Shown here: piece after piece, positions 45,648 through 62,900 of the stretch
Numbering within the stretch: the first letter of the stretch is position 1
Layout of the letters: the number at the start of each line of letters is the position of its first letter
Origin: an uncultured Christensenella sp.
Lineage (GTDB): Bacteria > Bacillota > Clostridia > Christensenellales > UBA1242
Assembly (NCBI GenBank): GCA_964387705.1
Contig: CAYLWT010000004.1
Location: forward strand, 4,242 to 68,241
DNA length: 64,000 nt
Reading direction: 5' to 3'
Notes under the pieces: model-generated
The model's input: the letters and a program-made list of their open reading frames with translations, nothing else
What the model was told of the DNA's origin: nothing
Databases searched by the model: none
Position numbers and translations under genes: made by a program

Positions 45648-45679
45648 AATCTTTTTCTCCTATTTTTTAATTATAGATT

Positions 45680-48600
45680 TTATTTACCCTGTGACAATCC
45701 TTCATCATTATTCGATGAAGTTTCATCCGTTGAAGCTTCCTCATCGTCATCGCTAACATCAACATCAACTTCCACTTCATTAGGAATATTCTTATCATCA
45801 AGACGATACCACCTATCGTTACCATCTTTATCTTTAATATTAACTGAACCCACATATGTTGGTTTTTCTACTACCACAGTTTCGTCTTCATCAACTTCTT
45901 GTTTCTTTTTTGAAGATTGTCTTTTGATGGCATCGAGTTGCTTCTTAATCCGTTCTTCGCCAGCCTCTTCGAGTCTTTTTTTGATTTCTTTGCTCTTATT
46001 CCTTGACCCGCGTCTGCCTTCTGATTGAGCTTCATCTTGTTTTTTCTCTTCATTTCCTACTTTCGTCTTGTTTAGATTTCCGGTTGAAGTTGGGGTTTTA
46101 TTTTCCCCTTTTTTATCAGTGTTTTCTGCTTCTTCTGATTTCCCATTTCCTTTAGCATTTGAAGTTGTGTCTGATTTATCTTTTTCTTTTTTGTTAGCAT
46201 TTCTACATTCACCCGTTTTCTCCGTTTCTGTAGCATTTGGATTTCCAGTTGAAGTTTGGGTTGCTGTCTCAGCATTTTTCTTGCCTTCAGCGGTTGCATC
46301 TTCACCTTGCGAATAATCACAACTTGCTATTCTGTTTGTATATTCTGGGGTACCAACAGGATTTTCTCTTTGTTCTAATGCCTCTTTGACTTGTTCTTCT
46401 GACACTTCAGGGACTTCATTTACAACTTCTGGAATTTGGACTGCTTCTGCATCGACTTCAAGTTCTTTCACATCAGATTTCTCGGCATTGTTCAATTTTT
46501 TAGAATCTTCTTTTTTGTCTTTTCTAACAGTCTTTTTCCTCTGATTCCTTTGTTGCTCTTCTTCCCTTGCTTCCTTGTTTTGTAGGAATATTTTAATTAC
46601 AAGAACCTTTTCATCTCCACTCACAAGATTCTCATTACTTCCACTCAAAAGTTTGACAATTTCCTTAACATTATCGCTGGACAGACTAATTCCATTTATA
46701 GGATTTTCCCCATTTTTGTTAGCATTTTTCTTTCTACTTGCATTTTTCTTCTCATCAGCATTTGAAGTTGTGCCTGGTTTATCTTTTCCTTTTTTGTCAG
46801 GATTCTTCGCTTCTCCTGATTTCCTACGGCTACCTGTGTTACCCTTGCCTTCAGCATTTGGCTTTCCGGTTGGAACTGGGGTTTTTGTCTCCGCATTTTT
46901 CTTGTCTTCAGCGGTTGCATTTTCACCAACGATTTGTTGTTCTTTACTTTCTGCTTTTGTTTTACTTGGTGTTTCAGTTGAAGTTGAGGTTGATTTGTTT
47001 TCTCCATTTTCGGCTATTTTCTCAATTTCTTCTGCAGTTTTTGCCGTTATGTCTTTTACAACATCTTCCGTTGTTTTTTCATCTGCTACATCAATAATAG
47101 TTTCTTTCTTTTCATTTTCCTTTATCTCTTGTGGAACAAGCAAGCCTTTTTCTAAGTCAAGAACCATTCTATATTTTGGTTCTTCGATTTTAGATTCTTT
47201 TATCTCTTGTGAAACAAGCCCACCATTTCCTGTAGTATCAGCAACAATTTTGAATTTTGAACTTTCAGTCTTTTCAGCCGCATTTTTTGCAGCTCCATTG
47301 ACAATCTTAGCTATTTCTTGATCTTTTTTTACTTGGTTTTTCCCTAAAACGTTGTCAGGTTTTGGTCCTACTTCTAGTTTTTTGTCTATTTTTTTGCTTG
47401 AATCTTCTTTTTTGCTTGAATCTTTTATAGCAGGCTCAATTGATTTCCCGCCTTCAGTTTTTTGTTCGTCCACAACTTTTTCTTCTTCTGTTGTCTTTTC
47501 GTCAGTTGGTTTCCCATCCGCAATAGATTTTTCTTCAACCACCTCTGTCTTTTCGATCTTAGGTAGTAATAATTGGGTACGATTCCTTCTTACTTGACGT
47601 GCAAATGAATCAACAATTGGGTTTTTAGATGGGTTTTTAGAAACATTTTCTGCCTTAAATTGCCCAAGGGTTTGCACAAGCACTCCTGCTAAAATTGCAT
47701 ATGCTTGTTGCATAGACATTGCATCTCCGCAACCATATACTTTCTTGCTAAGATAACGTTCTTGTTTCACTGGGATAACACTCTTATTGAGTTGTTGATC
47801 GCTACTATCAAGTTTCCCATCTATTAGACCTTGATTTTCAAATGACTGATTAGCTTCGTTAGGATTTTCAGATTTTGGGGTATTTTCCTTGATATATTCT
47901 GCAGCCGCACGGTCAACAAAATCTATTGCAAGAGCATTCTTTCCAAAATAGATATCCTTTTCTTCCACTTGTTCAAAACTAATTTTGAATTTCTTTTCCC
48001 AATCTTCTTTTAATTTTTCAAGATCGTCTTTGATATTGAGTTCATATTGAACCTTATCCCCGTGAACTACATTTTGTTTTCTGGAAACAGGCAAATTGTC
48101 AACTGGGATTAAAATTCCGTTATTTTTAACAAATCCAGAACCAACATAGCGTCTTTCAGACTCTGGCGAGTTGAAATCTCGTTCGTACACTTGCATTAAC
48201 ATCATGTCTTTATCAGTGTTTGGTGAATAAGCAAGAGTAATTTTTTCTGAATAAGGGAATTTTTTTATAATTTCATCACTCATCGCAACTTCAGCAAGAG
48301 TTGAAAGTCCTTCCACTTTATCCATAACATATCCACCACGACTTGCAAATTCATCAGAAATTGCTTTTGCGAGGCCAATGTCGTCCACAAGAATTCCATC
48401 AATTTTTGAAAAACTATAGGCCGCATCGGCAATAATTTCCCCATACTCTCTTGCTTTTGCAATATTATTTTTTGTTTGCCCCGACAATTCAACATCCAAT
48501 GCTGAATCTTGCGAGAAAATTGGTGCGTCCTCTTCAATACTTTCGTGCAAATTTGAAGAAATTTCTTTCAATGCATATGGAGCCAAGAGGTCACTTACAA

Positions 48601-49447
48601 AAACCTTTGTAAGTTCATCATATGCAACAGCATTGCTTGGGATAAAATTATCTTTAAAATCTTTTTTGCTCACATATGTTGTAAATCTTTCGCGAAGTGA
48701 AGGTCTATTGCCTTTCTTATGTCTGCCCAATTCCATGCCATGCTTTTCGGCACATTTGTAAATATCATTGTCGATTTTGACAAAGTCTTCCTCCGTATAC
48801 CCTTTGTTTGTAAGGTTTACTGCCACATTTTCATCAATATAACTTTCCCTAACATCACTGAAGTTAAACACTCCATTTGCTTGTTGTTTTTGGAAAAGAC
48901 GATCACCAGCTTCTGTTTTTTGAAATGCATTGTTAACATTGCATGCAGAAGATACCAATCTTAAAAATGCCGTTGGATTAATAATTTCTTTTTCATCAAG
49001 TTTCCCTTTCCCAGCAAGTTTTGCTTGTTTGTTAATTTTCCCAAGAAGTGACTTGTATGGGCTTATACTTCCATCTTCAAAGAATGAGCAGATGTCTTCA
49101 AAAGAAGGGTCCCCTTCAAACTCTCCAGCCTTGCCCAAAACTTCCTCTGACAAAATTTTTGTAAAAGAATCAAAATTTTTTGTTTTGATGCCTTTGCACG
49201 AAAACTCCATGTACTTAACAAATTCTTCAAAAGATTGTTTCCCCTGTGCACAATCATTAAAAATTCTTGTACTTTCACTTTTTTGTTGATCTGAAAATTC
49301 CTTTGGCAAAAATCCTGCATTTTCTAGTTCGCTTACAGAAATCCATTCTTTATTGTTTGAGAAATCAATTGAAACTGACTTTGCATATTTTGAAAACACA
49401 TTATAGAGTGCATCATCGAATCTCTTTCTATCATAAACATAATCCAT
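45680..49447 (-). CDS. Large cytoplasmic hypothetical protein (1255 aa): globular N-terminal half, K/E/N-rich low-complexity C-terminal half
   Basis: RBS GAGGGA; no signal peptide or TM seen; internal repeats. Confidence 0.8.
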   Translation of the reverse strand: MDYVYDRKRFDDALYNVFSKYAKSVSIDFSNNKEWISVSELENAGFLPKEFSDQQKSESTRIFNDCAQGKQSFEEFVKYMEFSCKGIKTKNFDSFTKILSEEVLGKAGEFEGDPSFEDICSFFEDGSISPYKSLLGKINKQAKLAGKGKLDEKEIINPTAFLRLVSSACNVNNAFQKTEAGDRLFQKQQANGVFNFSDVRESYIDENVAVNLTNKGYTEEDFVKIDNDIYKCAEKHGMELGRHKKGNRPSLRERFTTYVSKKDFKDNFIPSNAVAYDELTKVFVSDLLAPYALKEISSNLHESIEEDAPIFSQDSALDVELSGQTKNNIAKAREYGEIIADAAYSFSKIDGILVDDIGLAKAISDEFASRGGYVMDKVEGLSTLAEVAMSDEIIKKFPYSEKITLAYSPNTDKDMMLMQVYERDFNSPESERRYVGSGFVKNNGILIPVDNLPVSRKQNVVHGDKVQYELNIKDDLEKLKEDWEKKFKISFEQVEEKDIYFGKNALAIDFVDRAAAEYIKENTPKSENPNEANQSFENQGLIDGKLDSSDQQLNKSVIPVKQERYLSKKVYGCGDAMSMQQAYAILAGVLVQTLGQFKAENVSKNPSKNPIVDSFARQVRRNRTQLLLPKIEKTEVVEEKSIADGKPTDEKTTEEEKVVDEQKTEGGKSIEPAIKDSSKKEDSSKKIDKKLEVGPKPDNVLGKNQVKKDQEIAKIVNGAAKNAAEKTESSKFKIVADTTGNGGLVSQEIKESKIEEPKYRMVLDLEKGLLVPQEIKENEKKETIIDVADEKTTEDVVKDITAKTAEEIEKIAENGENKSTSTSTETPSKTKAESKEQQIVGENATAEDKKNAETKTPVPTGKPNAEGKGNTGSRRKSGEAKNPDKKGKDKPGTTSNADEKKNASRKKNANKNGENPINGISLSSDNVKEIVKLLSGSNENLVSGDEKVLVIKIFLQNKEAREEEQQRNQRKKTVRKDKKEDSKKLNNAEKSDVKELEVDAEAVQIPEVVNEVPEVSEEQVKEALEQRENPVGTPEYTNRIASCDYSQGEDATAEGKKNAETATQTSTGNPNATETEKTGECRNANKKEKDKSDTTSNAKGNGKSEEAENTDKKGENKTPTSTGNLNKTKVGNEEKKQDEAQSEGRRGSRNKSKEIKKRLEEAGEERIKKQLDAIKRQSSKKKQEVDEDETVVVEKPTYVGSVNIKDKDGNDRWYRLDDKNIPNEVEVDVDVSDDDEEASTDETSSNNDEGLSQGK
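46154..46927. repeat. Diverged internal direct repeats within the 1255-aa gene
   Basis: 46231-46306 vs 46852-46927: 64/76 identical. 46154-46193 vs 46757-46796: 37/40 identical. Protein (E/D)xATAExKKNAET...TGxPNA...K(G/E)KDKxxTTSNA occurs twice. Confidence 0.85.
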
Positions 49448-49478
49448 AAATTATCCCTCACTTTATTTTGTTATACAT

Positions 49479-49507
49479 ATAATAGCACACTTTTCCAACA
49501 CTTTCAA
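49479..49507 (-). promoter_or_regulatory. Sigma-A promoter of the 1255-aa gene
   Basis: TTGAAA-17-TATTAT with TG extension. Confidence 0.7.
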
Positions 49508-49556
49508 TAGGAAATTTATTTTTGTATTTATTGCCCAAAAAAAACTAAAAAATGGC

Positions 49557-49578
49557 AAAAAGGCAGGAAATTCCTGCC
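49557..49578 (-). terminator. Terminator after virB4
   Basis: Minus strand ggcaggaa-t-ttcctgcc-ttttt, 5 nt after the stop codon. Confidence 0.8.
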
Positions 49579-49583
49579 AAAAA

Positions 49584-52211
49584 TTATGAAAACAACCTAA
49601 CAACTGTTTCACTTGCTTCAATTTTTACCGAAGTTCTGGAAAGAGCCCCCGAAATAAGGAATGCTTGACCGACACCTGCCGTAACGATATTATCTTGCTC
49701 CTCTTTATTAATTTCACCAGCATTTCTATATAACTCAATAAGGTCAGTTACGTCATTTGGTGCAAGGCCAAAAATAAAAGAATATTGGCTTGCATTGATA
49801 ATTGCGGTTGATTGACGTTGAATTTCTGGGCTTCCGACAAAGTCTTTAATATTTTGCGTAATAACAATTTGCATCCCAGCATATTTACGAATACGCTTTG
49901 CCATTTGAGCCATAAATTCAAGAGCAATTGGGTGCTTTGGGTTTATGAACACGTGAGCTTCGTCAACGGCAACAACAATATGCCTGTTTGCATGATATTT
50001 GTCGTTAAAATCCTTATTTTTAATAATTTCGTTATCCAAATATTTGAACACCAAAAGCATTTGTGCATTTGCAATAACTTGGTTTCGGTTTGCAAGAAGG
50101 GACCGGAAGTTAAACGTCACAAAATTTTCTTTTGTTGCAATGGAAGTTGGGCCATTCCAGAGGTTACTATTTCTGCCCCCCGTTGCAAATTTTGAAATGT
50201 AAGTTTCAACGGTTTGCAAATTTTTCTTTTGATATTCATCGGTTTCTGTTTTTAATCTTTCTAGTGTAATTTTATATAAATCATCAAAGATTGGAAAATC
50301 TTCTGGTTTAAGCTTTGTAAGTGGGGTTTGAGCGTTTATTCCCTTGCGTCTATAGCTTTCAATAATAAGGGCATTCAATACCTCAAATGCTTCTGATGGC
50401 ATGCCAGGCAAAATAATTGTAAAAAATTCTTCCAAAAACTGCAAGTGTGTGGAATAAGAGTCATCTGATCCGCCTTCATCCGCATCAAGAGTTGTCATAA
50501 TATGAAATGGATTAAATCTCCCGCTTTTTGATGAACCAACATCAAGAAATTTCCCACACATATTGTGACAAAGTGGTGTGTATTCGTCCTCTGGGTCCAA
50601 AACAAAAACTTTTGTGTTGTCGCAGGCTAGATTTGTAAGAAGAGTCTTTGTCGCATAAGATTTTCCGCCACCAGATTTTCCAATAATCATGACATTGCTA
50701 TTTGCTCTTTCTCTATCACGTTTAAAAAAGTCGACAAAAACAGGATATTCATTATAACCAATATAAAAACCTTTTTCATCAAGCAAAGCTCCCGAAATAA
50801 ATGGAAAAATTGCAGCAAAGGTTGTGGTTGGAATTTCACGTTTGTGTTGAGTTACGGTGTCAAGAGCTGAAGGATTTCGGCTGATGAATGAGTCAACTTG
50901 CCTGCCAAACATATCGGTATATTTAAAACCATTTTGTCTTAAAACTGCTCTAACTTCCTTCTTTGCTGAGTCCTCACAAAAAAGGTGTGTTGTTACTTCA
51001 AAAAGTTGTTCGTTGTTCTTTTTTAACATTTGCAAAAGGTCTGTGAGTGTTTTAAGTTGAATTTCGTTCTCAATTCTCTTACTGCTTTTGTAAACATTTT
51101 CCATTTTCCCTTCCATTTCAATAATAGAACGGTCAATTCGTCTTTCACCTTGTTCTTTTGGCACGAGACGGAAATTAACACACACATTTGTTCTGTCTAA
51201 GAGGAAGAATGGTGCGCCCCAAGCATTGCCAACTTCAAGGGGATAGTCAGTTATTGTAAACGTTCTATAAGGTTGTTTGTTTATGATGGTTTTCGCTATT
51301 TTAAACTGAATATTTTCAGGCATTGCCCAATTTGGGAATTGATCTCTTGGTGTACTTTCAAGATCTCTTTCATCAAAATATCTGCCAAAGTTTGCCCTCA
51401 AGAAAACTGTAAGTTCCTTATCTCTAAGTTTTTTTGCAATAAGAGGAACAACAGAGTTCCCAAGAGTATTCACAATGCCGTCAATAGTTGATTCAAGAGC
51501 ATCCTTATCTTTGTCGTAAAGAACAAAGTAAAAGAAATCTTTATAAACTTTTTCGTCACGATTCATTGTTTCAAGTTGAGAAACCCTATTCTCAAAAACG
51601 TCAGCACGTGCAAGGACTTCTTTTTCGGTCATTTCGTTTTCATATTGCAATTCCATAAGGTCATCATATTTTTTGTCTTCACCAGTGATATAATCATCAA
51701 AAACAAGGGCTTTGCTCAATTTTAAAATACTTCCACTTTGCTCGCCAGTTACACGTCGGAGTGCATTTGCGAATGAAGCGATAACCATTTCTTGCTTTTG
51801 CTCATTCAAAAGACCAAACTCAATAGGCTTTATTTCAATGACCATGCCATAATATTCTTTAAAGTCAATAAATTTGTCCTTTACAATGCCTTCAAATGGA
51901 ATAATTTTCTTAATTTTGGGTTGTTTGGTTTTTGGATCAACGTCTGCTTTATTATATTTCTTTTTAAATGCAACAAAACGCAAAAGCAAGCCTACTGTTG
52001 AATAAACTCGCAACTCATCATTTATTTTTAAGAACAAAATTACAACAAGACATGCCCATGCAAATGCAATGTATAGGTTGTATTGAAAGTTGGCTAAAAT
52101 TAGGACCAAAAGCCCTACAATCCCCAAAATTCCAATGATAATGTCTGGCAAAGTTATCCCCTTTGCAAACTCCATTCTTACTTTTGTTTTTCTTGGAATG
52201 TATCTTATCAT
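49584..52211 (-). CDS. virB4: VirB4/TraE-type ATPase with fused N-terminal PrgI/VirB3-like membrane domain
   Basis: Walker A GKSGGGKS, Walker B VAVDEAH, LDPEDEY, RFNPF and KRIRKY motifs; N-terminal IPRKTKV...GITLPD plus two TM helices. Confidence 0.9.
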   Translation of the reverse strand: MIRYIPRKTKVRMEFAKGITLPDIIIGILGIVGLLVLILANFQYNLYIAFAWACLVVILFLKINDELRVYSTVGLLLRFVAFKKKYNKADVDPKTKQPKIKKIIPFEGIVKDKFIDFKEYYGMVIEIKPIEFGLLNEQKQEMVIASFANALRRVTGEQSGSILKLSKALVFDDYITGEDKKYDDLMELQYENEMTEKEVLARADVFENRVSQLETMNRDEKVYKDFFYFVLYDKDKDALESTIDGIVNTLGNSVVPLIAKKLRDKELTVFLRANFGRYFDERDLESTPRDQFPNWAMPENIQFKIAKTIINKQPYRTFTITDYPLEVGNAWGAPFFLLDRTNVCVNFRLVPKEQGERRIDRSIIEMEGKMENVYKSSKRIENEIQLKTLTDLLQMLKKNNEQLFEVTTHLFCEDSAKKEVRAVLRQNGFKYTDMFGRQVDSFISRNPSALDTVTQHKREIPTTTFAAIFPFISGALLDEKGFYIGYNEYPVFVDFFKRDRERANSNVMIIGKSGGGKSYATKTLLTNLACDNTKVFVLDPEDEYTPLCHNMCGKFLDVGSSKSGRFNPFHIMTTLDADEGGSDDSYSTHLQFLEEFFTIILPGMPSEAFEVLNALIIESYRRKGINAQTPLTKLKPEDFPIFDDLYKITLERLKTETDEYQKKNLQTVETYISKFATGGRNSNLWNGPTSIATKENFVTFNFRSLLANRNQVIANAQMLLVFKYLDNEIIKNKDFNDKYHANRHIVVAVDEAHVFINPKHPIALEFMAQMAKRIRKYAGMQIVITQNIKDFVGSPEIQRQSTAIINASQYSFIFGLAPNDVTDLIELYRNAGEINKEEQDNIVTAGVGQAFLISGALSRTSVKIEASETVVRLFS

Positions 52212-52292
52212 ATTTCACCCCTTAAGGTTTCTCCCCGCTTTTTGCAGGGAGAATTTTAGTGTAATTTTATCATTTTGTCTTTCGTTTTTTCA

Positions 52293-55200
52293 CTATAGTT
52301 TCTTTAAAATATCACTAAGAATTTTTCTCATTGCATCAAAACCTGCATTGATATTTTTTAGTTCTTTATTACTCTGATAATTGACTGCTTTCATTGCTTT
52401 CATAATTTGCTCGCTAAGAGTTTTGTCACTAGAATCAACCGTAACCTTTTGTGGATCCTTCTTTTGCTCAGCCTCCAAATCTTTAAGCATTTTCTTAAAT
52501 TTCTCAAAGTCTTTATCTTTTTCATGAACTTTGTTTTTGTAATCTTCATTGGCACGTTTTTTGATTATGTCGTCATAATTTTTCGCAATGGTTTCGGCTC
52601 TATCTGCATTGACTGTCATTTTGCCACCATTAACATTAAACGCCCCCATTTTGAAACGTTCATACTCTTGAAGAATTCGCTTTGTTTCCGTTTCTTTTTG
52701 AGCCTTGTTCTGATTTTCTATCTTTTCATCTTCATATTTCAGTTGTTGTTCCCAAGCTTTCTTTCGAGCTTTTTCCTCTTTCACCGTATCTCTAAACTTA
52801 TTTTCATCTGCTGTTGATATAACCTTGCCTCCTGAGCCTGGATCCATAAATTTTTCCAAGATTGCACCAGCCGAAGAATCAACCCCTTTAATAAAGTCTA
52901 ACCCATTTTTTGGCGTATCAGAAAAGAATTTTCTATCTCCGACCTGAGCAAGAATTCCCAAAGCCCCAAACATCGCCTTGTTAACAGCCCAATTTACACC
53001 TGGAATGTGTGAAATTACCTTGCCGCCCTTAGTTTTATTTAATGCTTTTTGTCCACTCTCCAAAGCTTTCACCGCACCGCCATCATTTGCGGCCTTCCAA
53101 GCCTCTTGTCTTGCTTCTTTGCCAGCAAGCTTAGCATCATCTGGGGCATTAACAACTTGATCATATAGTCTTACATCCCCCTGTGCATTATCAACTCTAC
53201 GTTGAGCATTGTCAGCTCTACGTTGAGCATTGTCAAGATCTTTCTCTCGACGTTCAAGAATTTTACCATAGCTTTTCTTTTCAAATTCCGCATGAGCAAT
53301 TTCAGACTCAATATCGCTTTGTCTTTTATCGAGCTTTCTTTTTTCCTTAGAATTATTCCAAGAAAGGCCTCTCTTTTCAAAAAATGCTGCTTTTTCCTCT
53401 CTTTCTCTTTCGAGCTCTTCAAGCTTTTCTCGTTGCTGTGCGATAAAGGCATCTCTCCCTTGCATCCTATTCTTTGTGTCGTCCACTTTTTTTTGCGCAC
53501 TTTCTCTATCAACATTAGCTGCCTCAAGATCATGATTAGCTGCCTCAAGATGTCCCTTCAATGCCCACCTATTCTCTTTCGAAATCTCATCAAAATGGTC
53601 CCGTTTATACTGTAAACTAGCAACTCTTGCGGTATCTCCTGATTCTTTTGCTGCTGCAATTTGGTCATCAAGATCACCCAAGACAGCTTCTTTGCTTTTT
53701 TGAAGACTTTTCTTCTTTGCTTTGTGCCCTTGCAAACCACTATACAATCCTTTGAACGCTGCTGCAGGCCCTGCAAGAGCCATTCCGCCCACAACTGCTG
53801 CACCTTTGCTGGCTGTGCCAATGGTGCTTAAGGCTTTGCCGGTTAGGTCTTTGCCAGTTGCAATCATATCTTCTGTGCCAAGGAACCCAGCCAAAAGTGC
53901 TGAAGCTTTGTTTATCATGCTCACGCCAACATAAATAAATATGATAGACACAAAAGCATTGTAGGTTGCATAAAGAGGGTTCACCATACCGCCGAAATTA
54001 ACAACTGAAGAATCACCAAAGAAATTTAATGTTGAAATAAGAGGCACAATGGTGAAGAATATGTTTATTGCAAAAACTGGAACCGCAGTCATTGTGAGTT
54101 GTTTTATCCAATTGCTTCGCCAACTGCCCTCTGCACTGCCCTTGTCAAGCGGAGCAATTGCCGTTACCACTGGGGCCATAAGGAACAACAAAACCATTTC
54201 AAGTGCACGTTTTACAAACACCAAAATTAGTTTTAAATATTGCCATGCAATTGCCACCATTCCAAAAAGCATCATAACAAGATTCATGTTGTTGAACTTG
54301 TAGAAATATCCAACAAGTCCTATGTCCATTATTGCCTGCCCAGAAAAATTGGTTGGTTTCCACCACCATTGCTGAACGTCAGGAGTATACTCAGCTCCAT
54401 CTGACCAATCATCACTATCTTTCTTTTTATACATATCTTGCCATTCCCCCGTGGTTTTGCTTGTCACATGCAAATTTTCGGAAGAAATTTTTAGATAAGC
54501 TATGCCTGCCGTTGTCTTGAACTTAGAAACATACTTTTCATCAGTTTCCACCTGGTCGATTGTCGTAAGAGTGCTCCCAAGGTTGGAGCTTTTAACCATA
54601 TCATTCATTTCCTCTTCTGTTTTAAGGGTGAAATCCGACTCTCCTGACTTCCAAACAGCATACTTACAATAGGCGCCTTTGCCATCGCCATTCCCGACAA
54701 AAATTCTATTTATAAAATCGACCAATTTTTCTCGCTGATCAGCAGTTATTTCTTCTATTGATGTACTTGTAAACACCGGCTTGTCTTGCCCAAAAATTTT
54801 TGTTTCATCTGTGTCATATTCTTTTTTCAAGACATTCCACAACCATGCATAGTTTTTATATAACGAAGCACTATCTCCACCATTTACCAATAAATTATAT
54901 GCTTTAACAGCCTCTACAATTTCTGTTTTTTCATCATCTGCTAAATATTGACATCGGGCAAGAACCTCGGTGGAGGAGCTTCCCTGTTTCCATGAATCCA
55001 AATCCTCCACTGAGATTTGTTTAAGATATGCTTTACCGAATGCCCTTCGATCAAATCCTGTATATGGTGCACAATCAGATGATGGAGTTCTCAAACTCAT
55101 CGAAACGGTTTCACCCCTCGTCCAAATTGCTAGTGACTTCGCCATTTGCGCATAACCATATTCTTCACCCATAAATGTCAAGGTCACCGGGACTTGTATG

Positions 55201-56138
55201 GTCCATTCATACCACGTGGCCCCTATTTCAGTTGGCTGGTCCCGTTTTTGTAACCGGAAACGTCCAGCGTAATTCTCATCCCATGATACATAATATTCGG
55301 AGGGGTCCTGAGCATAGTCGTACAGATGTAGTGAGTCTTGAGAAATATCCCATGAATCTTGATTTTTTATCTCTTGTTTGTACACTACTGCTTCAGAAGC
55401 AGAACCATATTTAATTTTTTCATATTTCATCACAGAGATATATGCATCATCACATGTAAAATACTTTTTAAGAACAGATGTAAAACTCGATCTATTGAGA
55501 AGTATGCGTTCATTTGCAAAATAAACCGCATCTGAGGACAAAAGATAATTTGCAAAACCATTATCAAGTGAAGCTCTGTTGGCTTGTGTGGCTCCAGCAT
55601 TAAAAACTACATTTGTTATGCAATAATTGCTATCGCCATTGAACGTATAATACACTGCTTTTGTAAGCATATTTGCGCCATATAAACTTGCCACTGACAA
55701 AACTGGAATAAGAATGAAATTTACAATAGATTTAACTGCACGTTGAATAATTGGAAGTTTCGCAGCATTCTTAACGTCAGTTGAAAATTCTGATTTAACA
55801 ATCGCAAAGATAGTAAAAACCACAAGAAGTGCTATGCACATTGCAAAAATCGTCCAAAAAGTGGTCATAACTACATCGCTAGTGATGAAAGCATAGGATA
55901 TATCCGTCCAACGCCCCTCTCCACCGACATCAATGTATTTATTTCCCAAAGTCAGATGCATCGCATCAATTCCTGCCAATTTTTTGAAAAGGCTTAACAC
56001 AAATTCAATAAGCATTCCAACGCCCACAAAAATAGCATAAAAAAGATGGCCAATAAAATTTAAAGCTTCACCACCTATTCCACAAACCACCCTAAACCAA
56101 TCATCCCACACTGCAGCAAGCATATTAGAAAATCCCAT
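52293..56138 (-). CDS. Extended VirB6-like polytopic membrane protein (1281 aa)
   Basis: N-terminal TM bundle; about 430-aa soluble insert; TM core KRALEMVLLFLMAPVVTAIAPLD...WRSNWIKQL; long charged coiled-coil C-terminus; directly upstream of virB4. Confidence 0.72.
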   Translation of the reverse strand: MGFSNMLAAVWDDWFRVVCGIGGEALNFIGHLFYAIFVGVGMLIEFVLSLFKKLAGIDAMHLTLGNKYIDVGGEGRWTDISYAFITSDVVMTTFWTIFAMCIALLVVFTIFAIVKSEFSTDVKNAAKLPIIQRAVKSIVNFILIPVLSVASLYGANMLTKAVYYTFNGDSNYCITNVVFNAGATQANRASLDNGFANYLLSSDAVYFANERILLNRSSFTSVLKKYFTCDDAYISVMKYEKIKYGSASEAVVYKQEIKNQDSWDISQDSLHLYDYAQDPSEYYVSWDENYAGRFRLQKRDQPTEIGATWYEWTIQVPVTLTFMGEEYGYAQMAKSLAIWTRGETVSMSLRTPSSDCAPYTGFDRRAFGKAYLKQISVEDLDSWKQGSSSTEVLARCQYLADDEKTEIVEAVKAYNLLVNGGDSASLYKNYAWLWNVLKKEYDTDETKIFGQDKPVFTSTSIEEITADQREKLVDFINRIFVGNGDGKGAYCKYAVWKSGESDFTLKTEEEMNDMVKSSNLGSTLTTIDQVETDEKYVSKFKTTAGIAYLKISSENLHVTSKTTGEWQDMYKKKDSDDWSDGAEYTPDVQQWWWKPTNFSGQAIMDIGLVGYFYKFNNMNLVMMLFGMVAIAWQYLKLILVFVKRALEMVLLFLMAPVVTAIAPLDKGSAEGSWRSNWIKQLTMTAVPVFAINIFFTIVPLISTLNFFGDSSVVNFGGMVNPLYATYNAFVSIIFIYVGVSMINKASALLAGFLGTEDMIATGKDLTGKALSTIGTASKGAAVVGGMALAGPAAAFKGLYSGLQGHKAKKKSLQKSKEAVLGDLDDQIAAAKESGDTARVASLQYKRDHFDEISKENRWALKGHLEAANHDLEAANVDRESAQKKVDDTKNRMQGRDAFIAQQREKLEELEREREEKAAFFEKRGLSWNNSKEKRKLDKRQSDIESEIAHAEFEKKSYGKILERREKDLDNAQRRADNAQRRVDNAQGDVRLYDQVVNAPDDAKLAGKEARQEAWKAANDGGAVKALESGQKALNKTKGGKVISHIPGVNWAVNKAMFGALGILAQVGDRKFFSDTPKNGLDFIKGVDSSAGAILEKFMDPGSGGKVISTADENKFRDTVKEEKARKKAWEQQLKYEDEKIENQNKAQKETETKRILQEYERFKMGAFNVNGGKMTVNADRAETIAKNYDDIIKKRANEDYKNKVHEKDKDFEKFKKMLKDLEAEQKKDPQKVTVDSSDKTLSEQIMKAMKAVNYQSNKELKNINAGFDAMRKILSDILKKL
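53185..53235. repeat. 21-bp (heptad) tandem duplication in the VirB6-like tail
   Basis: ctctacgttgagcattgtca at 53195-53214 and 53216-53235, plus a partial copy; encodes DNAQRRA-DNAQRRV-DNAQ. Confidence 0.9.
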
Positions 56139-56189
56139 TTTTCACCTCTCCAAATTTAAAAGATAAGATTGTTGCAAAATTTTGACACA

Positions 56190-56606
56190 TTAAGCATCAA
56201 CTTTTTTCCAGCCATCACTGCCTGTGAAACTAAAAACTTCTTGCAGGCCCTTAACAATTTCTGGAATGTTATTCATAATGATTGCGCCAATCCACAATGC
56301 AGCCATAAATGCTCCAAAGCCGATTGCAATTCCCCAAAGGCGTTTTTTTGCCTCTTGTGCAGCACTTGCAGTTTCTGCTTTTGCCAAATTTATACCAACC
56401 GCAATGGCCAACACAACTGCCAATGCAAGCAATCCAATGGTCACTGGGATGAGAAATCGGTCAAGAAATTTCATAACCTCCGCAACGCCACCATATCCTG
56501 ATGTTTTAAGATGGTCAATATCAAAGCCAACCCAATACCAACTGCCTGAACTTGCATCACAAAGCAGTTTTAATCCAATTTTTACAATTCCAAATAAATC
56601 AAACAA
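56190..56606 (-). CDS. VirB2/TrbC-like pilin, copy 1
   Basis: 138 aa; two TM helices separated by NLAKAETASAAQEAKKRL; TTG start. Confidence 0.72.
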   Translation of the reverse strand: MFDLFGIVKIGLKLLCDASSGSWYWVGFDIDHLKTSGYGGVAEVMKFLDRFLIPVTIGLLALAVVLAIAVGINLAKAETASAAQEAKKRLWGIAIGFGAFMAALWIGAIIMNNIPEIVKGLQEVFSFTGSDGWKKVDA

Positions 56607-56956
56607 GGCTTAAATTCCCCTTTAATATAGATTTCGCCACAATTTTGCAGAAAACAGGAAGTTATCCACAATTTTTACACACAAAGTGCAAAGACTTTCA
56701 AAAAGTCCTCAACTCCATCAAACGCAGGGTCCGTTGACATTTTGGGGCAAATTTGAAAAATAAATTTGAGAACAAAATGGCAACATAATTAGTTTGACCT
56801 ATTTTAACATAAAAAAACAAAAAACGCCAACAAAATAAGACGTTTTTTGATAAAAAAATGTATTTTTTATTATAAATTCTTCATTTAATTGGATTGGATG
56901 TCAAAAGTAGTCACTTAATTGCAAAGAAAACACTTTAAAACCTGCAATTTTCACTC

Positions 56957-56995
56957 AAAACGCAAAAAGGCTCATGCCAAAAACGGCTGAACCTT
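56957..56995 (-). terminator. Terminator after pilin copy 2
   Basis: Minus-strand RNA AAGGUUCA-GCC-GUUUUU-GGC-A-UGAGCCUU then UUUGCGUUUU. Confidence 0.65.
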
Positions 56996-57025
56996 GTGTT
57001 TTTTCATTGCGTTTCTACGTTCCAA

Positions 57026-57442
57026 TTACAACTTTGGAATGAATGAACGGATTGATGTTTCAATCATCGTCGCGTCGCCGGTGACATCATTTCGACCAAG
57101 CCAATCTGGAACAAATGCCATGAGCGAAGCAATAATCCAAATAGCAGCCAACGTTATAACAAATGCAACTGCAACATTAATAAGTCTTTTCTTAATATCC
57201 CCCGCTTTGCCGGCGTCTTCTGCTCTTGCAAGTTGAATTCCAAGATAAACACACCACACAACAGCGGCTGCAAGAATAACGATAGTGACAGGAACAAGAA
57301 TTCTTCCCAAGAAAGCAACAATCTGCCCTAACCAATGATTGTCTTTGTTTTGAAACCATTCACCCTTCAAAACAGTATTGAAAATTCCACCATCATAAGT
57401 AATAGCATCAGCCTCCGCACCAAGCAAACTAAAAAATCTCAT
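57026..57442 (-). CDS. VirB2/TrbC-like pilin, copy 2
   Basis: 138 aa; QLARAEDAGKAGDIKKRL loop between two TM helices; clear paralog of copy 1; RBS AAAGGGGAG. Confidence 0.75.
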   Translation of the reverse strand: MRFFSLLGAEADAITYDGGIFNTVLKGEWFQNKDNHWLGQIVAFLGRILVPVTIVILAAAVVWCVYLGIQLARAEDAGKAGDIKKRLINVAVAFVITLAAIWIIASLMAFVPDWLGRNDVTGDATMIETSIRSFIPKL

Positions 57443-57472
57443 TTTTTCTCCCCTTTTATCTAAGTTATGTTC

Positions 57473-57500
57473 ATCCTAACACAATTTTTTGCAATTTCAA
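57473..57500 (-). promoter_or_regulatory. Putative promoter of pilin copy 2
   Basis: TTGAAA-16-TAGGAT with TG extension. Confidence 0.55.
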
Positions 57501-57674
57501 AACAAATTTTGCATAAAAATCAAAAAATTTTTTATTTTTTTCTTTTTTTGGCAAATTTTGATAGAAAACACCAAAAATTGGGGCTATTTTATTTGATTGT
57601 TTTGTGTATTTTTATTATAATGATATTATTCTTATTGACTTTTCAAAAAATTTAGTTGTTATTTGGAGAATGAT

Positions 57675-59690
57675 ATGAAAACTTTGAAAAAACTTATTTT
57701 ATTTCCAATTATTTTGCTCCTTTGCTTTGTGGCTGGGCTTGCCCTTAGTTATTATACAAGTGGAGCAAAAGTTTTTGATCTTGCAAAACTCTTGTCAAAT
57801 CAAATGACTTTGTTCCCTGTTGTTATTGGTGGGGCAGGATATATCCTATATCTTTTGTCTGGAGCAGCGGAAACCAAGCCAAAAACCATCAAGATAGAAA
57901 CCAAAGACAAAAAAGGGAAAAGTATTGACCAGTTTTTTGACTCTCGTTGGGTGACAGAGCAGGAGCTTAGAACTGACAAAAAGTTTATGTTCACCACTTG
58001 GCGTCAACTTCACACCAGCAAAGACGGGATTTTGATTCGAAGTGAAGTTAAAGGCAACAATATTGACATAAATATGTACAATCCTATTCACACAATGGTC
58101 ATCGGCACAACCGGAACTGGTAAAACTCAAAAATACATTGAGCCTTCTATTCAAATTTTGTCCTCCACACAAAGCAAACCAAGTTTTGTTATCACCGACC
58201 CAAAGGGCGAACTTTATGAAAAACACAGTCACAAGTTGAAAGCAGAAGGATATGATGTGAAGGTTTTTGATTTGAGAAAACCTTATCAGTCATCTCGCTG
58301 GAACCCAATGGACAATGCATTTATGCAATATCACAGAGCCCATCATTTGCAAGATGAGGTGAAAACTCACGTGGGCGTAAATCCTGCAGATTTGGGACTT
58401 CAAATTATTGCACATGAATATAACAACGAGTGGTATGAATATAACAAAACCGCCTACCCAAACAAAGAATCACTTGACTCTGATTTGCGTTCCAAAAAGG
58501 CTGAACTTATTGACCAAGCGGAAAACGACATTGCAGAAATTGCTGCAACTCTTTGCCCTATTCAAAGCACACAAGACCCTGTGTGGGAACGTGGTGCACA
58601 AGAGTTTATTCGTGGCACAATGCTTGCGATGCTTGAAGATTCAAACGACCCAAGGCTTAATATGACTAGGGATAAATACAACTGCTACAATTTGGCAAAA
58701 ATTGCGAACTATCGTGACCCAACATCAAATGACAACCCTTATGGACCTCTTAGAAGTTATTTCCTTGGGCGCCCACCTCTTAGCAAGGCGATATCTCTTG
58801 TTTCCAGTGCAATTAACAACGCACCAAACACAACAAAATCTTATATGGGCATTGTTTCTGCATCGCTTGCACTATTCAACGACAATGGGCTTTGCTTCGC
58901 AACCAGTGGCACAGAGATGGACTTTTCAACCTTTGCCGACAAACCAACCGCCCTATTTATTATCATTCCTGACGAAAAAGAATCAAGACACAAACTTGCA
59001 ACACTTCTCATTTCCCAACTTTACAAAAAACTTGTCGACATTGCCTCCAACTGCCCTGGACAAGCATTGCCAAGAAATGTGTATTTCCTTCTTGATGAGT
59101 TTGCAAATTTACCAAAAATTGACAAAATTGATTCACTTATCACAGTTGGCCGAAGTAGACACATTTACTTTTCTTTGGTTATTCAGTCTTTCAGCCAACT
59201 TAATGCAAAATATGGTGATGACGTGGCTGCAGTTATCAAGACAAACTGCCCTATCAAGATATTCATTGGAACGGATGACGTAAAAACTTGTGAGGAGTTC
59301 TCTAAACTTTGCGGTGAAGTGACCATTGAAAACATTTCAACCTCAGAAAGCAAATCCAAGGACGACAAGAGCAAAGACAAAAAAGATGGCACAAGTTATA
59401 CAACAAGCATTGCAACCACCACAAGACCACTTGTTTATCCTGATGAACTTACCCACATAGCAAAAAAAGATGGCACAGGTGATATGATTGTTAACATTCT
59501 TAATGAGTTCCCAATTAGAGTGAACTCCACACCAGCGTATGCAACACCTATGTTTGATCATATTTTGGCCTCAAGCGAATACGTTCCTTCAAGGTCCCTT
59601 GATGAAGAAGCTGTTTCTTATAGCATTGTACAAAGAAACAACATCATTCTTCGCCCACAAATGTCAAACAGGTCTGTCAATCCATTTTAA
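57675..59690 (+). CDS. virD4: VirD4/TraG-type coupling protein
   Basis: Two N-terminal TM helices, Walker A GTTGTGKT, ITDPKGELY, RWNPM, YFLLDEFAN (Walker B) and GRSR..F..VIQSFSQL...YG. Start moved to ATG 57675 (RBS GGAG). Confidence 0.92.
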   Translation: MKTLKKLILFPIILLLCFVAGLALSYYTSGAKVFDLAKLLSNQMTLFPVVIGGAGYILYLLSGAAETKPKTIKIETKDKKGKSIDQFFDSRWVTEQELRTDKKFMFTTWRQLHTSKDGILIRSEVKGNNIDINMYNPIHTMVIGTTGTGKTQKYIEPSIQILSSTQSKPSFVITDPKGELYEKHSHKLKAEGYDVKVFDLRKPYQSSRWNPMDNAFMQYHRAHHLQDEVKTHVGVNPADLGLQIIAHEYNNEWYEYNKTAYPNKESLDSDLRSKKAELIDQAENDIAEIAATLCPIQSTQDPVWERGAQEFIRGTMLAMLEDSNDPRLNMTRDKYNCYNLAKIANYRDPTSNDNPYGPLRSYFLGRPPLSKAISLVSSAINNAPNTTKSYMGIVSASLALFNDNGLCFATSGTEMDFSTFADKPTALFIIIPDEKESRHKLATLLISQLYKKLVDIASNCPGQALPRNVYFLLDEFANLPKIDKIDSLITVGRSRHIYFSLVIQSFSQLNAKYGDDVAAVIKTNCPIKIFIGTDDVKTCEEFSKLCGEVTIENISTSESKSKDDKSKDKKDGTSYTTSIATTTRPLVYPDELTHIAKKDGTGDMIVNILNEFPIRVNSTPAYATPMFDHILASSEYVPSRSLDEEAVSYSIVQRNNIILRPQMSNRSVNPF

Positions 59691-59698
59691 TAAAATTT

Positions 59699-59721
59699 AG
59701 CCCCTTTTTTGGGGCTTTTTT
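59699..59721 (+). terminator. Terminator after virD4
   Basis: agcccc-tttttt-ggggct-tttttt. Confidence 0.8.
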
Positions 59722-59971: not shown

Positions 59972-62900
59972 ATGAAAAAAAATAGTTCAAAAGTTATACT
60001 TATCTTGATGCTCGTTGCGTTGGCATCTATTTTTGGTTTCGTGGTGAGCAATTTTAAACCAGACGGGACTCCTGTGTATGCGAAATGCACAACTGTGGAG
60101 TCCAAGTCTAACACTCTTGAATCTAAAAGTCCTCTATTCTCTCAAAGTGAAATTCCTTTCGCCATTTTTACAGGAACTCAACTTGGCACAGAATATACCA
60201 TCGTGGATTATAAACCAGAATTTGAAACATCAGGCAATTCAGAAAATATGGTGGCAAGTTCCATCCCATATATTTTCTTGTCCTCAAAAATGGGTGAAAC
60301 AGTTTTATATGTAACGTTCAACACAGTCGATACAAAAAACGTATCTACTCCTCGAAATATTGTTGGACTCCAAGCTCAAATTAAAGTTAAAACAGCAAAA
60401 GAAACTAACCCGATTCAAATTCAATCCACTATCGTTGGCGAAACAAACCAAATGATGACTTTTGCACTTGACTTGCAACCAAATGCAACACATTGCCCAC
60501 AGCTTGCAGGGCAAACAAGTTTAACAGACCCAACAGATGATGTGTATTTGGGGAATGTTACCGATACAAGTTATAGAACAGGGCTTTGGGAATTCAGCAT
60601 TACATATATGGTTAAGTATGGGCAACAACAATCTTCAACTTACACACTCAACTTCTCATTCTATGTTTTGGACTTTGCGGACTACACCCAAAATGATAGC
60701 ACCCCTCTTACGATTTCAAATACAAACAACCTCTATACAAGTGGAACTGGAACAGAATCAAGCAAAATTGACACAGGATATTCAGTTTACAACTACAACT
60801 ATTCCACCCCACCAACAGTTGAATTTGATGCTTCAAAATTTGCATTGTCTTTCAATTATTCCGCTGGCAACAATTTTTATAACATGGATTTTGTAAGTTT
60901 TGAAGAAACAGGGGCGGACAGCGGAACAACGGGGAAAATTACTCTTTCATGCAACAAAACATCTGCCACCTATATTTTCGAAACTCATAGCGTAGGGGAT
61001 ATTAAATATAAGGCAGTGTTTGACTTCGATGATTTTGAAAAGAAATTTATAATCCCAAATTCAACTGACCTAAGAACCTCAACAATGCAGGGAATTTACA
61101 ATTTTAATCTTCAAATTGTAGCAAGAGATTCTGAACAAAAATTTCAGGTTTTGGACAGTGCTTCCCTAATTCAAAGTATTCGTGATGTCCTTTCTTCACA
61201 AAAACTTGTTATTTTTGGATATGATTTAAGATATAGTGAAGATGGCATTGAAAAATCACTTGAAAAACGCTCTGACGACAACAACACAGACATCTTTACT
61301 ACCATCATATCATACAATTCTACAACAACCTCAACAAGTGGAAATGTTGTTGTAGACAACACAAACGGCAACCGCTATTCCCTTCCAAGTGTTGATGGAA
61401 CATTTGCCATTGCAAAAACAAATATTGCACCACTAAGATTCCACAGCTTTGGAGCGATGACTGATGGCCAAGCAAAATTTTTGCTTATAAAGAATCAAAC
61501 GGCACTAGACAATGTTATGGATTATCTTTTAGGCATACAGGGCGGTGAAGGCACAACTCCCCACACCATTGAAGAACTTAAAGCTTTAATAAACAATGAT
61601 GGTTCAACATACAACAGGTTTTCTGCAATAACAAGTGACGGCATTTGGCTTATGTGGCTTGATTATTCTGTTGATGTCCCATACTCAAGTGACAGTGGTG
61701 ATAGCAAGTTGACCATTTCTGGTTCTCAGTGCATACTTTTCCAAATTGACAACTCCACAAAAACTCTTGGCATTCATTCAATATCATTTGATGACGACAA
61801 CCAAGCAACAACTGCCCACCTTTTCGGAGAATATACACAAGACAAAGTCAGAGTTTCGATAAAAGAAGAACCAAATGCCTTTTATTCTCCAATTTATGTC
61901 CGCTATCGCTATGCATCAGATTATAAAAACTATGGGACAAAAAGCACTCTCATTCTTAACGAAAACGACAGCTATATTGTCAATGGTGTGAAATACAATT
62001 ATTATGTAACCAATGAAAGTAACAACTACACGTTCCAAAATTCAGGAGCATATGTCGTTACTCTTGAAACAAGCACAGGCACAGCCATGGGGAGTTACAG
62101 CTTTAAAATTGATAAAGATGGATTTGAAAATATTGGAGTCTTTGAAGCAGTGTATAGTAGCGACCAATCCTCATACATAAAATCAACAAAGTTATCTGCA
62201 ACCCCACTAACTTCCAACATATTGTCAAGCAATCTTTACGTTACCAACAAGCCTTTCACTCTTTCTTGGGCAAACAAAGCAAGTGGCTCACAAGCTTCGT
62301 GTTATGTTGCATATATGAGCCTTGTAAAAGACAGCTCCGCAACTCCTGTTATGCTTGATGGCAACAATTCTGAATACTATATCACAAACAACTATAACCT
62401 CTCTGCCCTTGCAAAAAATATCGAAACAAATTACAAAAACAGCATAAATCAAACAACACTAGAATCAAACAGTTACTTTAAAAATGAAGGGCTATATTTC
62501 TTCTATGTTTATGATGAATGTGGCAACAGTTTCTCTGTTTGTGTGCTTGTCGACAACACTTCTCCAGAAATTTTACAACGAAACAGTGGCAATCAAACCG
62601 AAAACACCTTTGATTTATCAGAAAATCCAAACAATTTTCAAACGAGCAACAACACTTTATATTTTGGCACACACAAAGCCTTGGGCGTAGCAACCGAAGG
62701 GGCTGATGATAACATCACAATCTTGGACACAAGATACTTAGCATCATACGACCTTGAAACTGGCAATTATCTTAACACTCAAAACAAAGTTTCCTTCAAC
62801 TTTTATACCGATGTTCTTTCAAGTCTCGAGGGATATTATGTTTCTTCCCCAAGCCTTAATGCAAGCACAACTCCAGCAGGTGTTTCAAGTCCAAGAGAAA

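Follow-up and report, generated by a model that had tools for sequence, protein, structure and literature searches.

A chromosomally fixed type IV secretion system, with no relaxase in the window, as a very probable core trait of gut Christensenellales

Does a small set of type IV secretion genes lying among housekeeping genes belong to a mobile element or to the cell itself, and what would the cell use it for? This question is raised by a stretch of 64,000 nucleotides from an uncultured Christensenella sp. (Christensenellales; UBA1242; assembly GCA_964387705.1, contig CAYLWT010000004.1, positions 4,242 to 68,241; hereafter the window, with positions counted from its first letter), in which a preliminary description, made from the letters alone, had recognised VirB4, a VirB6-like protein, two VirB2-like pilins and a divergently transcribed VirD4, and had proposed a minimal machine that might not be an integrative and conjugative element (ICE). 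Profile matches and transmembrane (TM) topology place all of these components in the window, and the region of this type IV secretion system (T4SS) as a whole spans 45.4-64 kb. The core set does consist of few genes, but "minimal" understates it, as three linked genes absent from that description, for a 1255-amino-acid (aa) orphan, an 81-aa acidic protein (p81) and a 2756-aa giant surface protein, also belong to the locus. We hold it very probable that the locus is a chromosomally fixed, vertically inherited monoderm (MPF_FATA-like) T4SS, without a relaxase in the window, and that a large clade of uncultured gut Christensenellales, among them the reduced-genome family UBA1242, has it as a core trait. 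As to its use, on balance we lean towards a fixed T4SS that is the cell's own contact-dependent conduit to partner cells.

The minus-strand genes are transcribed in the order of two 138-aa hairpin proteins, the VirB6-like protein and VirB4, with virD4 divergent on the plus strand. The VirB4 ATPase (49584-52211, minus strand, 875 aa) matches PF19044 (E=2.9e-21) and, along residues 14-869, the VirB4_plasma family NF045975, that is, the Mbov_0397 family of ICE conjugal transfer ATPases, at 568 bits (cut-off 590); for its C-terminal domain there is a solved counterpart, the Thermoanaerobacter VirB4 4AG5 (1.6e-44), and the protein's relation to the CD1110 family is distant (153 bits). The Walker A (GKSGGGKS) and Walker B (VAVDEAH) motifs, read in the translation, are intact, and the two TM helices predicted at the N-terminus form a fused VirB3-like hairpin. 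The best VirB4 proteins of plasmids in PLSDB are only 25-28% identical, the top ones coming from Spiroplasma plasmids. VirD4, the type IV coupling protein (57675-59690, plus strand, 671 aa from its ATG, two N-terminal TM helices), matches all three Pfam coupling-protein domains (PF02534, 1.5e-47; PF12696; PF10412), retains the TrwB all-alpha DNA-binding domain and the TraG-D_C domain (Pfam), and lies above the cut-off of the CD1115 family NF045973 (292 vs 250 bits). An exact database look-up places its start at the ATG at 57675; a TTG start was rejected, as the look-up with it was unmatched and the recorded protein begins at that ATG.

The small hairpin genes (paralogue 1, 57026-57442; paralogue 2, 56190-56606; both minus strand, 138 aa) encode two-TM proteins that are 46% identical across a 74-aa core. 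Paralogue 1 matches the T4SS_pilin family PF18895 (E=3.2e-4) and the pilin-like Mbov_0395 family NF045849 (E=2.6e-7), both below cut-off, and paralogue 2 is assigned by its similarity to paralogue 1 and by NF045849 (E=3.2e-5, again below cut-off). Relatives carry arrays of two to three such paralogues; PF18895 is matched by 13 of 21 members of the family (best E 1.4e-10), and one member matches TrbC/VirB2. Whether they are VirB2 or VirB3 proteins is not fully settled, because their mycoplasma counterpart CDS15 has been interpreted as VirB3-like (PMC12857230). The VirB6-like gene (52293-56138, minus strand) encodes an extended polytopic protein of 1281 aa with 7-8 predicted TM helices, laid out as a first TM block (residues ~22-154), a variable insert (~200-600), a second TM block (~626-742) and a coiled-coil tail of ~530 aa, the topology of the tail being ambiguous in TM prediction. 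For residues 613-758, which hold the second TM block, the score with NF045848, the MMCAP2_0566 family of conjugal transfer proteins, is 94.9 bits (cut-off 90), and with NF045889 (Mbov_0396) the protein reaches 60 bits (cut-off 70); all 14 of the 14 orthologues match both families (best E 4.5e-44 and 3.2e-29, respectively), and two of them weakly match pLS20_p028. Neither the window protein nor the 14 orthologues match Pfam TrbL/VirB6 or any other Pfam family, and sequence and profile searches of the PDB gave chance-level matches only, with no solved VirB6 structure matched. Proteins of the CDS16 type are regarded as VirB6-like by reviewers (PMC12857230). An AlphaFold2 model of residues 1-800 from the single sequence was unusable (pLDDT 37.5).

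If the locus were an ordinary or decaying ICE, its relaxase and integrase would lie outside the window, and in favour of this one may cite that only 64 kb were given, that the family is otherwise known from ICEs and plasmids, and that in one related locus (L088; related loci are given by such handles) a tyrosine recombinase is encoded ~4 kb from virB4. Against it, the L088 recombinase is a XerC/D domain pair that sits amid murE, recA, cinA and pgsA. Pfam and NCBIfam recognised neither a relaxase, integrase or transposase nor a peptidoglycan hydrolase or VirB8-like family in the scanned open reading frames (ORFs), which cover nearly all window ORFs of at least 110 aa, and the search for att and inverted repeats around the cluster returned only short imperfect AT-rich matches and no terminal inverted repeats, in line with the absences reported in the preliminary description; divergent VirB8-like or hydrolase parts may be concealed within the orphan, the giant or the insert of the VirB6-like protein. 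A relaxase was likewise not found in the 10-kb flanks of annotated related loci. That description had named a relaxase, an integrase and att sites just beyond base 64000 as evidence for an ICE; what follows there is the remainder of the giant gene and an unannotated minus-strand gene (388 aa in strain L083, no Pfam match), and in L086 rho comes next after the giant. The T4SS genes are also indistinguishable in composition from housekeeping genes, as had been suspected: their GC content is 0.355-0.41 vs 0.29-0.40, and their relative synonymous codon usage correlates with that of housekeeping genes at 0.80-0.93 for the five large T4SS genes and at 0.61-0.79 for p81 and the two pilins, a spread equal to that of housekeeping genes of similar size.

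Conservation of position also speaks against an ICE. Among species whose VirB4 is 73-97% identical, which form the synteny set next to mnmA and recX, the order giant, virD4, pilins, VirB6-like gene, virB4, orphan, p81, TM protein, mnmA and, further on, recX and acpS is conserved in L001, L007, L009 and L011, and L002, L006, L010 and L013 keep the same order to their contig ends. Pairwise distances correlate between MnmA and VirB4 (r=0.935, 55 pairs), VirB4 and VirD4 (0.92) and MnmA and VirD4 (0.97), and in a more distant comparison an identity of 56% in VirB4 is accompanied by one of 64% in UvrA; together, synteny and the co-divergence with MnmA and UvrA serve as a stand-in for a formal tree comparison. 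In distant relatives a single virB4 is found among core genes, as in nifS-nifU-iPGM-virB4-greA (L024), RNase R-virB4 (L015), uvrA...fba-hflX-x-virB4 (L055) and SSB-...-virB4-rluA-pepF (L088). One further relative (L085 9464-13663; VirD4 53% identical) has one pilin gene and virD4, followed 13 nt on and on the same strand by a gene for a class-I aminoacyl-tRNA synthetase, an arrangement that suggests co-transcription of T4SS and translation genes. VirB4 of this kind is encoded by at least 529 species-level genomes of uncultured Christensenellales (one genome per species scanned), and the database relatives of VirB4 and VirD4 number in the hundreds to thousands, with an identity that slides smoothly from ~93% to 50%, all from metagenome-assembled genomes of uncultured Clostridia/Christensenellales; the closest relative of the window's genus is Christensenella sp. 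UBA7862 (L001). Conserved synteny, co-divergence with MnmA and UvrA, the breadth of carriers, the dispersal of components among housekeeping genes, strong purifying selection and host-like codon usage thus bear out the lineage-core, non-ICE reading first put forward in the preliminary description, and the notion of an ordinary ICE is largely refuted and in our view scarcely credible.

Selection on the module was gauged against the sister species L001, for which synonymous sites are saturated (dS about 1-1.8). VirB4 is 97% identical to that of L001, with a ratio of nonsynonymous to synonymous substitution rates (dN/dS) of 0.019 vs 0.022 for mnmA and below those of recX, acpS and other neighbours. 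The ratio is 0.047 for VirD4 and 0.044 for p81, and it rises to 0.18-0.25 for the pilins, 0.25 for the VirB6-like protein and 0.28 for the orphan, whose aa identities to L001 are 53-79%. The new finding is that pilins, VirB6-like protein and orphan are fast-evolving, and that two blocks of the VirB6-like protein are hypervariable inside one species. Across 40984-59690, dS against L001 is 1.0 for virB4, 1.1 for virD4, 0.69 for pilB and 0.47 for p81, compared with 1.5-1.8 for most flanking housekeeping genes and 1.0 for tm189, which adjoins the cluster; the low values in T4SS genes could stem from constraint on codons in highly expressed genes, or from a later exchange of the module among species by recombination.

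The two blocks stand out when the window is compared with strain L083 of the same species, whose VirD4 is 100% and whose giant is 99% identical. Block 1 (residues ~201-450; 54789-55538, minus strand) has 22-34% aa identity to L083, and block 2 (residues ~851-1000, in the coiled-coil tail; 53139-53588, minus strand) 18-26%; the latter is also the most divergent block of the protein in the comparison with L001. Outside them the VirB6-like protein is 94-100% identical to that of L083, except for 84% in the 50 residues preceding block 2, and residues 1001-1281 reach 98-100%. Judged from the alignment, the blocks look like cassettes swapped within one species, and as such they mark the extended VirB6-like protein as a probable determinant of specificity, which population genomics could test. 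Phase variation of the VirB6-like and giant genes in L083 was considered and rejected, the apparent gene splits being N runs in the scaffold. Block 1 sits in the ~380-aa insert between the TM blocks, which is limited to the window's genus; in other genera a separate gene of 570-950 aa, whose product is often a lipoprotein, instead stands between the pilin genes and the one for the VirB6-like protein. This extra gene is seen in L004, L005, L007-L009, L011, L047, L052, L060 and L086 (in L086 at 6627-9080, minus strand, encoding a lipoprotein).

Beyond virB4 lies the gene for the large soluble orphan (45680-49447, minus strand, 1255 aa), a candidate substrate or accessory protein that lacks TM helices and a signal peptide and has a K/E-rich, repetitive C-terminal half. 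It has no Pfam, NCBIfam or PDB match. An exhaustive comparison with 1.84 billion representatives gave three significant clusters, one being the window's own, and one weak match (E=3e-7); a word-indexed homologue search with its N-terminus returned four proteins. On these searches it appears to be a genus-level orphan, so that no function can be transferred from homologues, and its positional orthologues sit after virB4 within the same clade. Profile-profile comparison led us to reject both kinship with the unrelated ~600-aa family that follows virB4 in other genera and a TrsD-like relation to VirB4 (probability 0.1% in each case). The AlphaFold2 model of its N-terminal 600 aa (five-sequence alignment) was likewise too poor to use (pLDDT 40). 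Within the orphan gene, at 46056-46992, imperfect direct repeats of 67-107 nt, ~600 nt apart and 77-81% identical, encode K/T/G/N-rich segments. The next gene, for p81 (45402-45647, minus strand, 81 aa, acidic), has no family or PDB match and is conserved alongside the module: p81 is 96% identical in L001, and in L004, L014 and L052 it keeps its place immediately behind the large soluble protein, also where mnmA has been inverted. That the slot after virB4 is filled in different sublineages by unrelated, fast-evolving soluble proteins is a pattern known from effector cargo, and with a VirD4 present one might see in the locus a contact-dependent weapon that delivers toxic effectors into competitors, as the Xanthomonadales T4SS does, with the post-virB4 proteins as polymorphic toxins. 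We find this quite improbable, as Pfam and NCBIfam recognised no toxin domain or adjacent immunity gene, and the near-invariance of p81 (96%) beside a putative toxin that is 53% identical is unlike the co-variation of toxins and immunity proteins.

At the other end of the locus, after virD4, the window stops inside the frame of the giant protein, a candidate adhesin (59972-64000, plus strand, first 1342 of 2756 aa). Its full length was taken from longer contigs of the same strain (L081, L082); it has an N-terminal hydrophobic anchor, is S/T/N/Y-rich and has no Pfam match. In L086, whose VirD4 is 60% identical, virD4 is followed by a homologue of 2618 aa (28% identity over 2700 aa), and homologues also follow virD4 in L001, L005, L007 and L009. 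About 25 loci of the Caccovivens type have a lipoprotein-like giant ORF behind virB4, in the same orientation; it exceeds 3,300 aa and is unrelated to the giant of the window. From sequence comparison, the pairing of this T4SS with a giant surface protein thus appears to recur, with different proteins. The Caccovivens-type ORFs were seen in L038, L040, L046, L048, L049, L051, L053-L055, L057, L061 and L062, and also in L064-L066, L068, L070, L072-L074 and L077-L080 (example, L040 12764-22663); the frames extend past the ends of the fetched loci, with 2,391 aa where L054 stops early. Three N-termini were read (L040, L057, L074) and are lipoprotein-like, none resembles the window giant in BLAST, and that of L040 has no Pfam domain. 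One such gene takes up more than 1% of a ~1-Mb genome.

Which known system does the locus resemble most? The preliminary description had likened it to the stripped sets of Mollicutes ICEs and Patescibacteria, accurately so by NCBIfam matches and by the published account of the latter (bioRxiv 10.1101/2025.01.22.634366). For three of its parts the best family match is found in Mollicutes ICEs (Mycoplasma agalactiae ICEA and M. bovis ICEB; CDS5, CDS15, CDS16, CDS17): VirB4 corresponds full-length to the Mbov_0397 family, the VirB6-like protein to MMCAP2_0566/Mbov_0396 and the hairpins to Mbov_0395, where the mapping of Mbov_0395/0396 to CDS15/CDS16 is inferred from consecutive locus tags and PMC12857230. 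The order of small hairpin, polytopic protein and VirB4, with a separate VirD4, is shared as well; neither system has a VirB1- or VirB8-like part or a recognisable relaxase, and a large surface (lipo)protein accompanies both (CDS14 in ICEA; PMC6030558, PMC12857230). By sequence, then, the core module of pilin, VirB6-like protein and VirB4 appears to share both ancestry and gene order with the module that serves conjugation in Mollicutes ICEs. Mycoplasma ICE proteins have been stated to have no homologue outside Mollicutes (PMC6030558); the existence of relatives in Clostridia bears on the origin of these elements. There are differences as well. Pfam and NCBIfam found in the window no DDE (Mutator-like) recombinase CDS22 and no homologues of CDS1, CDS14 or CDS19, and there are no inverted repeats; in place of a multicopy state and random insertion there is a fixed site with vertical inheritance; VirB4, at 568 bits, narrowly misses the family threshold of 590, the clostridial CD1115 family is the better fit for VirD4, and the host of the window appears to be walled and to have sporulation genes. 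Because the defining features (DDE recombinase, inverted repeats, CDS14, CDS1, CDS19) are missing, the locus is not a member of the Mollicutes ICEs.

This kinship gives weight to another reading, in which a domesticated mating pore would mediate relaxase-independent, distributive exchange of chromosomal DNA among kin and so offset the decay by mutation of a small genome that recombines little. In that case the hypervariable blocks of the VirB6-like protein would be determinants of exclusion or mating type, and it is in keeping with this that hypervariability within the species is limited to that protein. It resembles the TraG/Eex exclusion determinants of SXT/R391 and F. The DNA-binding domain and TraG-D_C domain retained by VirD4, the Spiroplasma plasmids as source of the best plasmid VirB4 matches, and the frequency of repair genes nearby (uvrA, uvrB, rarA, ogt and recX in the window; uvrA, radC, SSB and recA in L055/L088) also point in this direction. 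The nearest homologues are mycoplasma ICE proteins (VirB4_plasma, 568 bits; Mbov_0396/MMCAP2_0566, equated with CDS16 in PMC12857230; Mbov_0395), and the mycoplasma ICE pore also moves chromosomal DNA (PMC12857230; PMC6030558). However, selection of this indirect kind usually means patchy retention, whereas VirB4 is here kept in at least 529 species with a dN/dS like that of a tRNA-modification enzyme; giant adhesins of different families across sublineages, and the lack of any visible origin of transfer (oriT), relaxase or partition gene, do not fit either, and the neighbourhood of repair genes may be a coincidence of small genomes. We consider exchange of DNA among kin unlikely, yet the chief alternative to a conduit to partner cells.

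Other conjugative and effector-secreting systems are further removed. Gram-positive conjugative T4SSs (the CD1110/CD1115 type of C. difficile CTn2; pCF10, ICEBs1, pLS20) share a VirD4 that passes the CD1115 cut-off, a VirB4 distantly related to CD1110 and, in two orthologues of the VirB6-like protein, a weak likeness to pLS20_p028. They differ in that relaxase, integrase, CHAP/SLT hydrolase and VirB8-like gene are all wanting nearby here, that the locus is not on a mobile element, and that it has pilin genes, which are normally absent from such systems (PMC12857230). The 89K island of Streptococcus suis likewise has a reduced Gram-positive VirB/VirD4 set, with reported secretion of a protein effector (PMC12857230). 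Its T4SS, in contrast, lies on a mobile pathogenicity island, has VirB1 and VirB8, lacks pilins and is not lineage-core. The rvh T4SS of Rickettsiales is comparable as a chromosomal, lineage-core system of a reduced-genome, partner-dependent group, with scattered islands, an extended VirB6, arrays of VirB2 paralogues in Anaplasma and no known relaxase, but it belongs to the diderm MPF_T kind, has an outer-membrane core complex and targets eukaryotic host cells, and it is not known to have a specific sequence relation to the locus described here.

In biological terms the closest counterpart is the T4SS of Patescibacteria (Saccharibacteria TM7x, Southlakia epibionticum), which is chromosomal and has no relaxase. 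Both systems are chromosomal, relaxase-free (here as tested locally), MPF_FATA-derived and spread lineage-wide through organisms with reduced genomes, both have arrays of divergent VirB2-like pilins (PF18895), and both are tied to partner-dependent life. They differ in phylum (Bacillota_A here), in the VirB3-like hairpin fused to VirB4 here, compared with 0 such fusions in 3,035 Patescibacteria genomes, and in the position of virD4, adjacent here and as a rule far away there; in our locus we recognised no homologue of TrsD, PrgI, VirB8 or a hydrolase, and it has giant surface proteins and a hypervariable, extended VirB6-like protein. In Patescibacteria the T4SS is essential for epibiotic growth (10.1101/2025.01.22.634366; PMC12857230), and a 2025 review calls it unique among monoderms, as needed for growth and having VirB2-like pilins (PMC12857230). 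The same design, chromosomal, with no relaxase found, with pilin arrays and in a reduced-genome host, would now be core to hundreds of gut Christensenellales species, and its recurrence points to a repeated solution for partner-dependent life.

What is published on the carriers fits a partner-dependent lifestyle. Candidatus Caccovivens and Ca. Caccopulliclostridium, which carry the system, are assigned to GTDB family UBA1242, Christensenellales, or to order 4C28d-15 (PMC8035907). Genomes of UBA1242 are mostly <1 Mb, without pathways for making amino acids, nucleotides and lipids, with an incomplete glycolysis and with neither ATP synthase nor the standard transporters, while sporulation genes are retained, and their bearers are predicted to be obligate symbionts or parasites (PMC12306168); in our set, homologues are carried by contigs of 0.83-1.05 Mb. 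UBA1242 has been associated with lower body weight in chickens in a study that does not mention a T4SS (PMC13155120). Nor is a T4SS mentioned where interaction factors are proposed, "hypothetical membrane proteins" being the only ones (PMC12306168). The preliminary description had supposed that the system might be undescribed for this lineage, and indeed a literature search found no description for Christensenellales/UBA1242. Bacteria of the UBA1242 type thereby gain a concrete candidate for an interaction mechanism, of which the literature names none (PMC12306168).

Based on chromosomal fixation and vertical inheritance, the T4SS is most likely a contact device of the cell and not a mobile element. 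We favour a role in interaction with partner cells because reduced genomes have kept VirB4 in hundreds of species, at the level of conservation of a core enzyme, and because the only tested analogue, the Saccharibacteria T4SS, is needed for epibiotic growth (PMC12857230; 10.1101/2025.01.22.634366); that the role is itself needed for growth is by this analogy a serious possibility, which we would put just short of probable. In such a mechanism VirB4, anchored by its VirB3-like hairpin, and the VirB6-like protein would form the membrane translocon, which the two pilins and the extracytoplasmic insert of the VirB6-like protein would extend as a channel through the wall. The 2756-aa surface protein would attach the cell to its partner, and VirD4 would feed cytoplasmic substrates to the channel, the 1255-aa orphan being a candidate substrate and p81 a possible adaptor. 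The hypervariable blocks of the VirB6-like protein might set partner or strain specificity, and the machine as a whole would serve partner-dependent life, as the Saccharibacteria T4SS does, rather than the spread of an element.

Several observations pull the other way. The absence of a relaxase or recombinase holds only for the 64 kb and ~5.3 kb past the window end, and MnmA is physically linked to the T4SS cluster and hence is not a fully independent marker of its descent. The nearest characterised homologues are all movers of DNA (mycoplasma ICEs, Spiroplasma plasmids, VirD4 of the CD1115 type), and the orphan proposed as substrate has no recognisable signal. The lineage is apparently walled (mreB, spoVB-like gene, lgt), yet neither a wall hydrolase nor a VirB8-like part was found in the window. 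Finally, for the organism of the window, which is of a UBA7862-like genus, the link to genome reduction is one that we infer.

The direction of transport could also be the reverse of the one favoured here. An import machine for DNA or other macromolecules, like archaeal Ced/Ted or Helicobacter ComB, would scavenge nucleotides or repair templates, which would suit a lineage without nucleotide biosynthesis; the authors of the Patescibacteria T4SS survey propose import there, and VirD4 has a weak match to CedB (E=1.2e-3). This match is far under the cut-off (17.6 vs 700 bits), and a canonical VirD4 with export-type architecture is present, whereas ComB is not known to have a VirD4. We regard import as very improbable. 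A bolder version of the conduit to partner cells, speculative and to our minds rather doubtful, would be that spore-forming Clostridia of ~1 Mb turned a conjugation machine that is elsewhere known from Mollicutes ICEs alone into an indispensable pilus-bearing conduit for obligate bacterium-on-bacterium life in the animal gut, either independently of Patescibacteria or as donor to them, with the VirB6-like cassettes setting partner specificity. If true, a second "essential T4SS" would be on record, and genuine Firmicutes would have their first.

The remaining features concern the surroundings of the locus. Its proximity to mnmA (43496-44584) and recX (41444-42073), noted in the preliminary description, stands in so far as both are nearby, although the direct neighbour is a zinc-ribbon/TM protein (44738-45307) and not recX. 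The promoters and terminators ascribed to the separate units fared less well: the window has 52 promoter-like sites vs 44+-7 in shuffled sequence and 9 terminator-like sites vs 10+-3, no excess in either case. Two terminators are nonetheless clean, an intrinsic-terminator-like hairpin directly after virB4 (49562-49578, minus strand), GGCAGGAATTTCCTGCC followed by a T run, and a bidirectional terminator-like hairpin after virD4 (59699-59716). Beyond the former, a promoter-like site precedes the orphan gene (49479-49507, minus strand). The divergent intergenic region between the pilin operon and virD4 (57443-57674) has promoter-like sites on both strands, as consensus matches only: TTGATT-17-TATAAT at 57593-57621 on the plus strand, and 57554-57527 and 57500-57473 on the minus strand. 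The other genes of the window are housekeeping genes, among them minD, mreB, ppx, uvrA, uvrB, rarA, hflX, rpiB, hisS, pepF, lgt, ogt and acpS, besides recX, mnmA and tRNA-Asn.

Two further large secreted proteins are encoded at 4986-8192 (plus strand, 1068 aa, signal peptide, no domain match) and at 18147-22382 (minus strand, 1411 aa, C-terminal PKD/Ig-like domains), and surface proteins, the giant included, make up a large share of the 64-kb window. Sporulation-linked genes (spoVB-like, YetF/DUF421, DUF4363, YpeB, SpoIVB peptidase) were noted at 9785-12441 of the window, at 21632-21977 of L086 and at 1-629 of L088, which agrees with the published surprise that the reduced UBA1242 genomes keep sporulation. 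A TauE/SafE sulfite-exporter gene occupies two adjacent ORFs (4034-4402 and 4448-4810, minus strand) of which one corresponds to the N-terminal and the other to the C-terminal half of the Pfam model; the split reflects either a frameshift or pseudogene, or else a form with two genes. A gene for a MazF/PemK-type toxin (39735-40079, minus strand, E=1.9e-37) lies amid housekeeping genes. Cumulative GC skew over 1-64000 declines near-monotonically, with a short plateau at 30-33 kb, and the majority of genes are on the minus strand; the window lies inside one replichore, without origin or terminus.

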